A DNA stretch of 64,000 bases, taken from positions 1,248,001 to 1,312,000 of the forward strand of contig CM000434.1 in the NCBI GenBank assembly GCA_000165345.1, in the 5' to 3' direction. Positions 20,000-52,917 of the stretch are shown here, in pieces (the stretch's first letter is position 1; every line of letters begins with the position of its first letter). Under the pieces are notes generated by a model that made no database searches, was not told the DNA's origin, and was given only the letters and a program-made list of their open reading frames with translations. A program made the position numbers and the translations under genes.

Positions 20000-21697
20000 A
20001 TGAAGAGCATATTTCCCTTTTTTTCAATTTTTTTACCATTATTAAAGCATTCATTTGGATATCAAGCTAACCAGCCAAATGTTTCAGAGTACAACTCTGA
20101 GCAAAATCTCTTAGCAGCTCTTTGCTGGTCTCTACCCTTCAAATTTATTAAATGCGATATCGATTTTGAGGAAAACGTATTAGAACATTTAAAACTTGAA
20201 CTAATCCCAAGATACAAAGTTTCTTCAACTGACGAAATTGTTTATAATATTAGAATGCAGCCAGTAACAAACGGATACTTAACAAATGCAATTCTAGCAG
20301 TAAGACCAGTTTATGGGCTGATTATTTCAAATGAAGCTGGAAATCCTGTTCTTCAAATTCCACATCAACTCAAGCATTCATCAACGGCAAAGTTTGGATT
20401 ACCGCATCAAGCCAAAAACGTTTTCTCATCTGTGAATTGTGTTCTTATGTACTCCAATATTGGAGAAGGTTTTTACTATATTCACCCTGGAAAGAGTGAA
20501 CATAAGTCAATTCCAAGATCCGTACCAGAAAACATAATGTTAAAAGCCTCTACGAAGAAAACAAGTACTAGAGAAATGTTTTATATGACTTTGTTATCAA
20601 ACCAACAGTTCCCCACAAAACCTACAGCTACCTATGGTGTTGGGACGGATTTTATGATACCTTCAGTAGTTTGTTTTGGGACTAATGAAAATCTAAGCCA
20701 ACAACTTCATGAAAGTAATTCATATCTGGGAGGAATTTTGATCCAAGAACGAATTATGGGACCTTCTCTAAGAGATGTTATCAAATTTTTCAAAAGTAGT
20801 GCGCTTTTGAAGTGGCTAAAAAATTCAAGAACTGATGATTTTAATTATAAAGCTAGAATTTCTCTCCGATTAGAAGCTCAGTATTCCTTGGCTCATTCTC
20901 TAATTGCTGCAATTTTAACTTTACAGCATCACTCAGTTGCAGGTAGGGTTTTACACTGTGATCTAAATACCAGAAGTATCTATCTTGATCGTATAGTTTG
21001 GAGCTGGTCTTCTAGGAAGATTGAAGATAATTTGAATGCAATAACACAACTGTCCCCATCTAACTTCAAATTTATTAACTTTGGGTATATGAAATCAACT
21101 CTCGAGGTATCAGAGGAGAATTTAGGCTGCTCTCAAACTGATAATGATTTAGTTAGAGTACAAGAATTTATTAAGATTTTATTTTCAGAGCAAAGCAATA
21201 GATCAGAGTTCCCTGAAAGTGGAAGCATAAGTAGTGGTATGATGACAATGAGCACTGGATTTAAAATGTGGTGGAATGAAGTAGTTAATTCTGTTGGAGC
21301 AGAGTCCACTAATCAAGAAGTCAATGAGCAAGAAGTTTTGCAAGTTGAAAATATTCTAAGGACTATTTATACAGATAATTCAGTTATATCAAATCTTGAT
21401 AGAACAGCCAAATTTTCTGGTATTGTTGCAGGCTTGAAGGCAATTCACGCCTCCATCAGCAAGGCATTTAGATATCTTTATGAGCAAGGATATGGTAGAA
21501 CTAAGAAAAGGGTAATTCTTGGTTGGTCAAGCAAAGACCTTGAGCCTGAGCCTGCCACCGAAATTAGTGGTACTGTCAGAAGAATCCTTAGTGGCAAGAA
21601 AATTGAAAATTCTTCTAATATGAATTCTTCTGGTGTAGATCCTTCAGGTTCATCTGATTTGGAGCTTTCTGCTGAATCTATTGGAATCTCTAGCTAG
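20000..21697 (+). CDS. Secreted kinase-like protein (565 aa) with degenerate catalytic motifs, a probable pseudokinase
   Basis: ATG start with a signal peptide (MKSIFPFFSIFLPLLKHSFG). The kinase-like landmarks are ILIQERIMGPSLRDVI (hinge-like), LAHSLIAAILTLQHHSVAGRVLHCDLNTRSIYLD (an HRDLKPxN-like catalytic loop reduced to HCD...S, about 20954-20980) and FKFINFGYM (DFG replaced by NFG, about 21077). A TTTGGCGCGC box lies at 19505-19514 in the divergent promoter. Confidence 0.45.
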   Translation: MKSIFPFFSIFLPLLKHSFGYQANQPNVSEYNSEQNLLAALCWSLPFKFIKCDIDFEENVLEHLKLELIPRYKVSSTDEIVYNIRMQPVTNGYLTNAILAVRPVYGLIISNEAGNPVLQIPHQLKHSSTAKFGLPHQAKNVFSSVNCVLMYSNIGEGFYYIHPGKSEHKSIPRSVPENIMLKASTKKTSTREMFYMTLLSNQQFPTKPTATYGVGTDFMIPSVVCFGTNENLSQQLHESNSYLGGILIQERIMGPSLRDVIKFFKSSALLKWLKNSRTDDFNYKARISLRLEAQYSLAHSLIAAILTLQHHSVAGRVLHCDLNTRSIYLDRIVWSWSSRKIEDNLNAITQLSPSNFKFINFGYMKSTLEVSEENLGCSQTDNDLVRVQEFIKILFSEQSNRSEFPESGSISSGMMTMSTGFKMWWNEVVNSVGAESTNQEVNEQEVLQVENILRTIYTDNSVISNLDRTAKFSGIVAGLKAIHASISKAFRYLYEQGYGRTKKRVILGWSSKDLEPEPATEISGTVRRILSGKKIENSSNMNSSGVDPSGSSDLELSAESIGISS

Positions 21698-22170
21698 TTG
21701 TATCTGCCTCCAATATATTAAAAATAACTTTATGAAACTCCCATTTAGTTATTTTCAGATGTTGAACATTGAAGATACCTAATACGAAATTCCCGAATAG
21801 ATATTTATTAATATATAGTCTAGAGAATCTTTAGACAAGAATAGAAAAAAAAAACTAGGAAATTAAGAAATCAATGTATCCTAATCTTTATAAAATATAC
21901 CTAGATTATTTACCCAAATACCCATATGCATCAAGCAAATAGCATTAATGAAGAAAGATAACAACTCCTAATAAGTATTAAATACCAAATTCTAATTATT
22001 TACTAAGGTAAATTAAAAATAGAAGGGTGAAAACGCTTAAGTTCTAAAGGGAATAAGATCCTTGAATCATAAAACTTTCCGTAGCTCACTACCTTTTTGT
22101 CTCTTCAAACAATAGTAGTTCAAATCCCCCAATCATAATACCAATTGGAAAACCTAAAACAAATTACTAC

Positions 22171-50705: not shown

Positions 50706-50985
50706 GGTTTAATTTTGAATCTTCTTATGTTGTGGGGGCACAAATTTATAACGTGTGAGGATAAATTTGTTTATTTGGATATAACTCACGTGTATTAGGT
50801 TTGAATAAATCCTTGACCCTAGAATAAAAATAAATTGATTCATTAAATAATTATAGTTCGTTTGGAGCTAGGATAACGCAATATAAGCAATCTGGATGTT
50901 TAGTGAGAAATTCGCTTACTAATACTTTAAGAGACAATTTTATTAACGATATTGAATAGGGTTTAACTATTGGGTGATAAGAAAA

Positions 50986-52917
50986 ATGCATACCGATAAG
51001 ATTGAGTCAAAACCAGTAAGAGGGTCTATTTTCCCTCCTAATGCGGATCAGGGAGTTTATTTGGCAGCAACGGACATTTCTTATCAAATTACAAGTGGCG
51101 TTTTTGAACAAAGCACTGCAAGAATATTATCAGGAATAAAGTTCTTTGCTGAGCCGAAAACTATGACTGCAATATTGGGTCCTAGTGGATCAGGTAAGAC
51201 TTCTTTACTTAATATCTTGTCAGGCAGGCTTTCTTCAACTGGTAATAAGCTTGTAGGAGGATCGATATATTTGAATGGAAAGAAGGTTACAAGCAAAGAT
51301 TTAAAGTCCCGTTGCAGTTATGTGATGCAACATGAAATGACTATTCCATATTTAACAATTGAAGAAACTTTGCTTTACTCCGCAGAATTGAGATTGCCTT
51401 TTTTGTCCGCAAAAGAAAGAAGAGAAAAGGTTAGAATTTTGCTAAATGATTTGGGTTTAGTACATTGCATGCATTCAATTGTGGGTGATGATAAGGTAAG
51501 ATCAATATCTGGAGGTGAACGCAAAAGAGTTATTTTGGGTACTGAGTTGATTAGTGATCCTCAAATACTGTTTATTGATGAACCTACAAGCGGTTTGGAT
51601 GCATTTATGGCTTTTCAAATCTTGCAGTTACTAATAAAGTTGGCAAAAACAGGAAGAACAATTATTTGTACGATACACCAACCTAGAACTCAAGTATTTC
51701 AGGCATTTGATGAAATTTTATTGTTGTCGAAAGGAGAAGTCATTTATCAAGGACCATCTAAATCTTCAGTTGATTATTTTTCCCTAATTGGATACCCTGT
51801 ACCAGAAAATTACAATCCAACTGACTATTATCTGGATTTGCTTGTTCCAAGATCAAATGTGGAAAAATTTGCTGACAGCCGTCTTCACTCCATTACTTAT
51901 GAACAATTGAGAGTATTACCAGAGTTGTACTTATCATCAGAGTATAACGATAGGGTAATAAGAAAGATCGATGAACATTTGAGTGGGCAATATTCCCCAA
52001 TTCCTGAGCTACTATTGTTTTCAAGAAGTAGCCATACATGTTTTGGATGGATAAGAAAGAAGCTATTTGCTTTTAGTGTTATTGTAAAGAGATCTTTTAT
52101 GAATAACGCAAGAAATACTTTAGGATCATTGGTTATTGGTGTTTTGGTAAATGCTTTTATTGCAGTTGTAATTGGAAGTATCTTCTTTAATTTGCCTTCA
52201 TTTAGCAATGATATTGGGATAACCTTTAAAAATGCAACCAACATTATGGGGGCACTTTTCTTTTCAGTAATGATTGCAACATTTGGAGCAATGATAGCAT
52301 TAGAATCTTTCACAAGGTTTAGAATAATATTCTCTAGAGAAAGAGCGAAAGGATTATATGGCCCTGCAACATACATGCTAGGTAAACATGTTGGAGATTT
52401 TATCTTTGAAATTGTTCCAATTTTGGTATTTAGTCATATATTCTATTTTATGAGTAATACGAATTCTGTTTCGTACCCAGGCTGGAATACTTTAACTCAA
52501 TATCTATGCTATCAATTAACTATTTTATTAACTTCCTGGGCAAGCTATGGCTTAGTTTATTTTATTTGCGGGATAACAAAGTCATTGGAACTTGCATATG
52601 GAATTGCTCCTTTAATAATTATCTTCTTTGTCATAGTATCAGGTTTCTATGTAACAGTTAATAAGTTGCCATTATGGGTTTCTTGGATCAAATATATTTC
52701 TTTCCAGAGATATTCTTATTCTGCCTTGGTGGTTAACACTTTCCCACCAAACCAAAATTGGGGTCCAATTCAGACCGATATTTTACTTAAACAGTTCTCT
52801 ATTGATCAGACATCATTTTTACTGAATGCAGTGGTATTAGTTGTTTTGGGCATTTTATACAGAATTTTTGCCTGTATTGCATTTGCTCTTTTCTTTAGAA
52901 ATCTTGGTTTAGAATAA
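50986..52917 (+). CDS. ABCG (White-type) half-transporter, nucleotide-binding domain followed by membrane domain; second copy in the window
   Basis: Walker A (ILGPSGSGKTSLLNILSGR), the signature ISGGERKRVILGTEL, Walker B (ILFIDEPTSGLD) and an ABC2-type membrane domain. The track start at 50974 is GTG; the first ATG is at 50986. TTTTGGCGGCA lies at 50695-50705 upstream. Confidence 0.85.
   Translation: MHTDKIESKPVRGSIFPPNADQGVYLAATDISYQITSGVFEQSTARILSGIKFFAEPKTMTAILGPSGSGKTSLLNILSGRLSSTGNKLVGGSIYLNGKKVTSKDLKSRCSYVMQHEMTIPYLTIEETLLYSAELRLPFLSAKERREKVRILLNDLGLVHCMHSIVGDDKVRSISGGERKRVILGTELISDPQILFIDEPTSGLDAFMAFQILQLLIKLAKTGRTIICTIHQPRTQVFQAFDEILLLSKGEVIYQGPSKSSVDYFSLIGYPVPENYNPTDYYLDLLVPRSNVEKFADSRLHSITYEQLRVLPELYLSSEYNDRVIRKIDEHLSGQYSPIPELLLFSRSSHTCFGWIRKKLFAFSVIVKRSFMNNARNTLGSLVIGVLVNAFIAVVIGSIFFNLPSFSNDIGITFKNATNIMGALFFSVMIATFGAMIALESFTRFRIIFSRERAKGLYGPATYMLGKHVGDFIFEIVPILVFSHIFYFMSNTNSVSYPGWNTLTQYLCYQLTILLTSWASYGLVYFICGITKSLELAYGIAPLIIIFFVIVSGFYVTVNKLPLWVSWIKYISFQRYSYSALVVNTFPPNQNWGPIQTDILLKQFSIDQTSFLLNAVVLVVLGILYRIFACIAFALFFRNLGLE

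Follow-up and report, generated by a model that had tools for sequence, protein, structure and literature searches.

The right end of chromosome 6 of Cryptosporidium parvum Iowa II raises the question of whether a run of genes for secreted proteins close to a telomere forms a variable, subtelomeric neighbourhood or a stable part of the chromosome. We analysed 64,000 nucleotides of this end (assembly GCA_000165345.1, contig CM000434.1, positions 1,248,001 to 1,312,000 of the forward strand; hereafter the window, to which all positions refer unless stated), in which a first-pass annotation had described an island of secretory-pathway genes, bracketed by two ABCG half-transporters, as a contingency or virulence-gene neighbourhood. 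The evidence makes it very likely that we are dealing with the conserved core at the end of chromosome 6 (cgd6_5280/5330 to cgd6_5450), made of single-copy, Cryptosporidium-specific genes mostly for secretory-pathway cargo. Both the region and its central genes have already been described, and the observation was largely right in detail.

The window contains the genes cgd6_5280 to cgd6_5450, and its proteins are exact matches to EAK90097-EAK90112 and, in newer assemblies, to the locus tags 6g5300-6g5450. Its guanine-cytosine (GC) content is about 30%, with open reading frames (ORFs) that are long and mostly free of introns. The genes under study are the following (protein lengths in amino acids, aa; repeat units in base pairs, bp):

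16216-19335, minus strand: cgd6_5330, the WCADHIR paralog of cgd6_5380, with an upstream exon that encodes the signal peptide
20000-21697, plus strand: cgd6_5340, secreted protein of 565 aa ('HCD family') with HCD and NFG motifs
22171-24495, minus strand: cgd6_5350, ABCG half-transporter, nucleotide-binding domain followed by membrane domain
25152-26612, plus strand: cgd6_5360, secreted protein of 486 aa with no assigned fold
26930-28078, plus strand: cgd6_5370, protein of ~382-393 aa, signal peptide not detected
28259-32491, plus strand: cgd6_5380, WCANHIR paralog of 1410 aa with an aromatic hydrophobic N-terminus
32593-34915, minus strand: cgd6_5390, signal-peptide protein, 735/736 aa in a three-exon model
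35113-37116, minus strand: cgd6_5400 (SG3), mucin-like small-granule protein, repeat unit 21 aa (63 bp), with ~41 Thr in a row
37380-39515, minus strand: cgd6_5410 (CP2), small-granule protein of 711 aa whose 11-aa repeats are rich in Lys and Glu, with a poly-Thr run
39837-43787, minus strand: cgd6_5420 (DG7), dense-granule protein of 1316 aa with five tandem Cys-containing modules
44454-45800, plus strand: cgd6_5430, signal-peptide protein that has an acidic ELSGDE repeat and a conserved C-terminal domain, and a terminal hydrophobic tail resembling a glycosylphosphatidylinositol (GPI) signal
46457-50290, plus strand: cgd6_5440, secreted protein of 1277 aa, kept across the genus
50986-52917, plus strand: cgd6_5450, ABCG half-transporter, the last genus-wide conserved gene before the telomere

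Between 20.0 and 50.3 kilobases (kb) lie 11 annotated genes, eight of which had a clear signal-peptide-like N-terminus by a hydrophobicity rule (cgd6_5340, 5360, 5390, 5400, 5410, 5420, 5430 and 5440) and one of which, cgd6_5380, was borderline; by the same rule no signal peptide was detected in cgd6_5350 and cgd6_5370. We set this count against a background of about 10%, obtained by dividing the 397 C. parvum signal-peptide proteins predicted with SignalP (PMC7371110) by our own estimate of ~3,900 genes. Nine signal-peptide genes out of 11 then have a probability of ~5e-8, and of ~2e-5 against a background of 20%. The enrichment reported earlier is thus far beyond chance, but the count of eleven genes in thirteen came down to eight or nine in 11; the protein sizes given with it (1277/1283 aa, 735/736 aa for the spliced model of cgd6_5390, and 486 aa) were borne out. 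As to lineage specificity (all of them had been called lineage-specific or low-complexity), no secreted protein of the block matched a Pfam family, and for the four proteins searched no homologues were found outside the genus. Only Cryptosporidium sequences were found for cgd6_5340, 5380 and 5440, and an exhaustive HMMER search of 1.84 billion representative proteins with DG7 returned a single relative (48% identity), which we take for the orthologue from a gastric species, and none outside Cryptosporidium.

To place the block in the genus, we compared the DNA around the orthologues of three anchor genes (cgd6_5380, 5440 and 5340) in six other species, a comparison that takes in the deepest branch of the genus:

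C. hominis: cgd6_5330 to cgd6_5450, order and orientation kept
C. ubiquitum: cgd6_5330 to cgd6_5450, order and orientation kept
C. bovis: cgd6_5330 to the position of CP2, where the contig ends, order and orientation kept
C. ryanae: CP2 to cgd6_5450 kept, with the orthologues of cgd6_5380 and cgd6_5440 six locus tags apart on one contig
C. andersoni: DG7, cgd6_5430, cgd6_5440 and the ABCG gene, order and orientation kept
C. muris: cgd6_5310, the AP2 gene, cgd6_5330, cgd6_5340, the ABCG gene, cgd6_5360, cgd6_5370 and cgd6_5380, order and orientation kept

As far as the contigs reach, each gene examined was present once per locus, with its order and strand kept in all six species, and no gain or loss of a gene was seen inside the block; gene content, order and strands were also alike in four C. 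parvum assemblies. Since the order is common to gastric and intestinal species, it predates their split, and the run of secreted-protein genes is best seen as a conserved core older than the radiation of the genus and not as variable subtelomere.

CP2 has been listed as absent from C. bovis and C. ryanae (PMC7371110). At the positions of SG3 and CP2, C. bovis carries poly-Thr, Cys/Ser-rich genes with similar C-terminal tails (17249-19183 and 19770-20810 of the fetched locus, both on the minus strand), and in C. ryanae the N-terminal part of CP2 was matched at 31% identity (E=1e-29; 1525-2205 of the fetched locus, minus strand). CP2 has probably diverged past BLAST detection in these two species and not been lost.

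On the view of the first-pass annotation the block is a subtelomeric contingency or virulence neighbourhood, whose gene content and repeats would differ from isolate to isolate and so vary the antigens that are secreted or exposed at the surface. In its favour, the block is chromosome-terminal, and the concentration of secreted, fast-evolving genes near Cryptosporidium telomeres is an established pattern (PMC4407392, PMC6532270, PMC7371110). Tandem Repeats Finder also recovered all the 63-bp, 33-bp and Thr-codon repeats reported in the first-pass annotation:

35372-35487: Thr-codon array with a 6-bp period, in SG3
36098-36492: 6.3 tandem copies of a 63-bp unit, in SG3
37668-37741: Thr-codon array, in CP2
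38181-38357: 33-bp repeat array, in CP2
44914-45040: 33-bp acidic repeat, in cgd6_5430

The lengths of these arrays vary. cgd6_5400 is used as a variable-number tandem repeat typing marker, with 7-9 alleles in steps of 3-6 bp (PMC4866762). In isolate HLJ (IId), SG3 is longer by three of the 63-bp (21-aa) units and shorter by two Thr, the Thr run of CP2 counts 22 residues in Iowa II, 16 in BGF and 19 in HLJ, and CP2 of C. hominis has two additional 11-aa (33-bp) units, while the acidic repeat of cgd6_5430 is present in four copies in C. parvum and in ~8 and ~10 copies in two C. hominis isolates. BGF is presumably an IOWA-derived line, and the six-residue difference between Iowa II and BGF in the poly-Thr run of CP2 may reflect either drift during passage of the line or misassembly of a homopolymer-like tract. 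The proposal that repeats provide length polymorphism therefore held for SG3, CP2 and cgd6_5430, and polymorphism was confined to those three genes.

Divergence followed the same division. For C. parvum against C. hominis, identity was 98-99% for cgd6_5340, 5350, 5360, 5380, 5390, 5420, 5440 and 5450 and 94% for cgd6_5370, as against 88% for SG3, 82% for CP2 and 90% for cgd6_5430; between C. parvum and C. ubiquitum, most genes were ~80% identical, with 38-43% for SG3, 42-58% for CP2 and 51-62% for cgd6_5430. Consistently with these values, cgd6_5400 and cgd6_5410 are among the listed fast-evolving orthologues of C. parvum and C. hominis (PMC4637869). Fast evolution is limited to SG3, CP2 and cgd6_5430, which are also the genes with varying repeat number. 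In these disordered, repeat-bearing proteins, length would change by slippage or unequal exchange within the Thr-codon, 63-bp and 33-bp arrays, and the remaining block genes would evolve at an ordinary rate.

Terminal position and coding-repeat polymorphism were found; paralog arrays and differences in content or order were not. Content and order were alike in all six other species, and the 12.9 kb that run from DG7 up to the scaffold gap (window 40986-53917) were 99.96-99.99% identical, with no indels, among four C. parvum assemblies. An all-against-all BLASTP of the window proteins retrieved only two paralogous pairs, the ABCG genes (31% identity) and cgd6_5330/cgd6_5380 (28.5%); the latter pair is real, as had been proposed, with the WCA[DN]HIR motif in both translations and similarity in two blocks (E=3e-20). 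Copy-number-variable families such as MEDLE and the insulinase-like genes lie beyond cgd6_5450 (PMC4407392), in much more adenine-thymine (AT)-rich DNA. The subtelomeric MEDLE, SKSR, FLGN, WYLE and insulinase-like clusters of Cryptosporidium (PMC4407392, PMC6532270, PMC7371110) likewise encode telomere-near, domain-less signal-peptide proteins, some of them fast-evolving, but the block genes are single-copy, show no gain or loss among species and keep their order genus-wide. The subtelomeric variant antigens of Plasmodium and Theileria (var/rif, SVSP) are also secreted or surface proteins near chromosome ends; unlike them, the block has no large paralog families and shows no sign of copy-number change or of a breakdown of synteny. 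With single-copy genes in an order kept across six species and no gene gain or loss seen, the description of the entire block as a contingency or virulence-gene neighbourhood is largely refuted, and we regard it as distinctly improbable. Synteny, one of the features that the first-pass annotation had itself named as speaking against its view, was found as far as the contigs reach, but the terminal location, the three polymorphic genes and the secretory enrichment held as well.

The conserved core is thus the preferred reading, and part of its content has been localised. The published granule proteins CP2, SG3 and DG7 are the same genes as cgd6_5410, cgd6_5400 and cgd6_5420, respectively; CP2 and SG3 are stored in small granules and DG7 in dense granules (PMC12782386 and the hyperLOPIT set cited there), and all three relocate to the parasitophorous vacuole membrane (PMC12782386). 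Judging by the N-terminal signal peptides, the products of the core would enter the endoplasmic reticulum, would be stored in secretory organelles of sporozoites and merozoites, as shown for CP2 and SG3 (small granules) and DG7 (dense granules), and would be discharged at invasion to the parasitophorous vacuole membrane or the host-parasite interface, a destination shown for the same three proteins and presumed for the others. Our literature search found no localisation data for block genes other than CP2, SG3 and DG7, and the six secreted proteins next to them (cgd6_5340, 5360, 5380, 5390, 5430 and 5440) are reasonable candidates for tagging.

Several points weigh against this reading. Signal peptides were called from names in databases and by a simple hydrophobicity criterion in place of SignalP, and the N-terminus of cgd6_5380 may be either a signal peptide or a signal anchor. 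For cgd6_5340, 5360, 5380, 5390, 5430 and 5440 we infer both organelle and destination. The parasite can do without CP2 in both growth and virulence (PMC12782386), which makes it uncertain how much the block proteins weigh functionally. Finally, contigs end near the block in several draft assemblies, and the synteny of SG3 and CP2 was not directly seen in C. andersoni and C. muris.

A different account of the conserved order is a co-regulated functional cluster, in which neighbours occupy one chromatin or transcription domain and components of the vacuole membrane and host interface are made together. The adjacent genes SG3, CP2 and DG7 all reach the parasitophorous vacuole membrane, and deletion of CP2 leads to more transcription of both flanking genes, SG3 and DG7 (PMC12782386), an effect that may nevertheless be due to the selection cassette that was inserted. 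When the dense-granule protein DG8 was pulled down, CP2 and SG3 were significantly enriched and cgd6_5440 and cgd6_5280 were borderline (p ~0.06-0.07; PMC13241007). However, SG3 and CP2 are highly transcribed at all stages whereas DG7 has a lower, dense-granule pattern (PMC12782386), the products are found in different organelles, and unrelated genes are interspersed (an ApiAP2 factor, the two ABCG genes and cgd6_5370). Gene order has been kept through the whole history of the genus, but the genomes of intestinal Cryptosporidium species are syntenic almost throughout (PMC6532270), and the conserved order is therefore not special here. The GCATGC and E2F-like promoter motifs, from window-wide counts, were not shown to be specific to island genes. 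On balance such a cluster seems unlikely. Much the same doubt attaches to a stronger version, that cgd6_5280-5440 is an ancient neighbourhood held by selection, making one layered coat at the vacuole membrane and host interface with coupled transcription of neighbours; if it were true, adjacency would have been kept for function and not through the general synteny of the genus.

The two ABCG genes were the other element of the first-pass description. Both half-transporters are present, at 22171-24495 (minus strand) and 50986-52917 (plus strand), with domains above the Pfam cut-offs: ABC_tran at residues 118-269 (88 bits) and ABC2_membrane at 494-713 (128 bits) in cgd6_5350, and ABC_tran at 53-206 and ABC2_membrane at 367-590 in cgd6_5450. 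Their translations contain the Walker A motifs GPSGSGKST and GPSGSGKTS and the ABC signatures ISGGEMKR and ISGGERKR, respectively. Their identity, put at 35-40% earlier, measured 30.9% over 689 aa and reached 43% within the nucleotide-binding domain alone. Among solved structures, cgd6_5350 best matched human ABCG1 (230 bits) and cgd6_5450 best matched CDR1 and human ABCG2 (261 bits), and the two proteins matched each other with 273 bits in BLASTP, values of similar magnitude although HMMER and BLASTP scores are not strictly comparable. Since the mutual score resembles the scores against human ABCG1 and ABCG2, the duplication is ancient. Each gene also has a separate positional orthologue in gastric species (58% identity in C. 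muris, 49% in C. andersoni). Like human ABCG1, ABCG2 and ABCG5/8, the Cryptosporidium proteins have the reverse domain order, Walker A and signature motifs and strong structure matches, but the two are no closer to one another than to the human proteins. A literature search for Cryptosporidium ABCG studies gave nothing specific. The true start of cgd6_5350 is probably in a short upstream exon.

Two genes of the same subfamily, ~27 kb apart and flanking most of the secreted-protein genes, might suggest that they delimit a discrete cassette produced by segmental duplication or insertion. Their low identity, the near equality of their mutual and human scores and their separate gastric orthologues argue against it, flanking repeats were not seen, and cgd6_5340 lies outside the first ABCG gene, with further signal-peptide genes to its left (cgd6_5330, 5310 and 5280). 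The left part of the window is arranged as follows:

1613-4957, plus strand: cgd6_5280, signal-peptide protein, also named so in databases
6077-7360, minus strand: cgd6_5300
8369-12277, minus strand: cgd6_5310, signal-peptide protein, also named so in databases
12608-15424, minus strand: cgd6_5320, four-domain ApiAP2 transcription factor

Because cgd6_5340, 5330, 5310 and 5280 extend the run leftward beyond cgd6_5350, the ABCG genes are not brackets. An ABCG-bracketed cassette was refuted by the identity values together with these outlying secreted-protein genes, and we hold it to be extremely improbable; the ABCG genes are ancient paralogs that sit in the block by chance.

On the other side, the conserved core ends close to a telomere. 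Telomere (TTTAGG) repeats set in 1.5-1.9 kb past the orthologous ABCG gene in C. hominis (a complete assembly and TU502_2012) and C. ubiquitum, in agreement with PMC4407392, and ~9.7 kb after the stop codon of cgd6_5450 in the complete C. parvum assemblies, which confirms the subtelomeric location proposed earlier; no telomere repeats were found inside the window itself. GC content falls to 14-25% from 53.0 kb onward, and the window continues with:

53918-54017: scaffold gap of 100 N, a false join
56878-58167, plus strand: cgd6_5460, inside AT-rich DNA (54018-64000) that belongs to the left end of chromosome 5 in complete assemblies

Complete C. parvum assemblies diverge from the window exactly at the gap. 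Positions 54020-64000 are colinear at 98.6% with chromosome 5 of these assemblies, in which cgd6_5460 lies ~17-25 kb from the left end of that chromosome, and the gap is therefore a false join of two AT-rich chromosome ends. Thus, the first-pass annotation was right about the gap and the low GC of what it called a hyper-AT desert, but not in taking them for the real end of the block. Analyses that treat the Iowa II DNA after the gap as chromosome 6 would be misled. The true chromosome 6 of C. parvum continues beyond cgd6_5450 with a small two-exon gene (168-244 aa), an M16 insulinase-like gene (1120 aa) and TTTAGG repeats. cgd6_5450 is accordingly a clean marker of the boundary, with the conserved core at 30-37% GC on one side and a short, species-variable, AT-rich end at 17-25% GC on the other.

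Several further features of these chromosome ends were observed. The true C. parvum BGF tail (11933-21932 of the fetched locus) has 17-25% GC, its protease gene included, and C. hominis and C. ubiquitum are without this tail of small gene and insulinase-like gene. On chromosome 5, cgd6_5460 is flanked by ~7 kb and ~10 kb without a called gene, at 14-25% GC; a literature search for a description of Cryptosporidium centromeres that might explain the AT-rich DNA gave nothing useful. Window positions 62316-63946, in the chromosome 5 piece, share ~68% identity with the stretch of chromosome 6 that separates the insulinase gene from the telomere (19821-21546 of the BGF locus), and this 1.6-kb AT-rich stretch looks like an old subtelomeric element common to two chromosome ends. 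In the C. hominis UKH1 scaffold LN877952.1, telomere-like TTTAGG lies inside the scaffold, ~1.5 kb past the ABCG gene (13412-13620 of the fetched locus), with sequence continuing after it; the UKH1 chromosome 6 scaffold probably has the same false join as Iowa II.

Among the individual secreted proteins, the two described earlier as poly-Thr mucins are mucin-like in sequence: SG3 has a run of ~41 Thr and CP2 one of 22, both with signal-peptide-like N-termini. An origin of SG3 and CP2 as tandem paralogs was considered and rejected, their N-terminal domains and C-terminal tails having no significant similarity. With the mucin-like clusters of C. parvum (Muc1-7 on chromosome 2, gp40/15) they share a signal peptide, poly-Thr, disorder, repeat polymorphism and fast divergence; they differ in having no detectable mutual homology outside low-complexity regions and in being small-granule cargo for the vacuole membrane instead of adhesins of the micronemes or the surface. 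The GPI-type features proposed for cgd6_5430 are apparent in its signal peptide and in its C-terminus (...IFSGQNLYIAMGILATVSIIVIVLMMM), where small residues precede a hydrophobic tail. C. hominis and C. ubiquitum share this conserved C-terminus, and GPI anchoring is predicted.

The five tandem modules of DG7 measure ~190-320 aa each and have conserved Cys, CPxG, FxCSDG, GY and IGF motifs. Sequence and profile searches of DG7 against solved structures gave nothing meaningful, and an AlphaFold2 model of module 1, made from an alignment of the five internal modules, had a predicted local distance difference test (pLDDT) score of 41, too poor for a fold search. As for cgd6_5340, which had been called a pseudokinase, its orthologues have the invariant motifs HCD (residues 319-321) and NFG (360-362), and some of them carry automatic UniProt names to that effect. 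The name rests on these, and kinase homology was not demonstrable: a lenient Pfam scan of 10 orthologues gave only noise, none of them matching Pkinase with the cut-off relaxed to E<=10, no kinase was found in the PDB with either the sequence or the profile, and the AlphaFold2 model from the 10-orthologue alignment was unusable (pLDDT 35).

Two Iowa II gene models proved to be truncated. That of cgd6_5390 (543 aa) misses two downstream exons; when the 543-aa ORF is spliced to the ORF at 32751-33194 and to a third exon, which ends at 32593, the protein gains a transmembrane helix at its C-terminus, as in the 735/736-aa model of newer annotations. That of cgd6_5330 (906 aa) leaves out an upstream exon at 19180-19335 (minus strand), which starts at 19335 and encodes MKLLKTSLGFLLCLVLG, the signal peptide; newer annotations give this protein 988-1003 aa.

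Two short motifs were frequent in the window. GCATGC occurred 18 times against 5.5 expected (e.g. at 12456, 24955-24964, 26702, 43865, 56601 and 56827), and the E2F-like TTGGCGCC, allowing for one mismatch, was counted 22 times where 8 were expected (e.g. at 15745-15754, 19506, 24984, 26715, 34975-34984 and 37233-37242). Many of these sites, which look like promoter motifs common in apicomplexans, fall in the short promoter regions between genes. The ApiAP2 gene cgd6_5320 is itself embedded in the run of secreted-protein genes and occupies the same position in C. muris.

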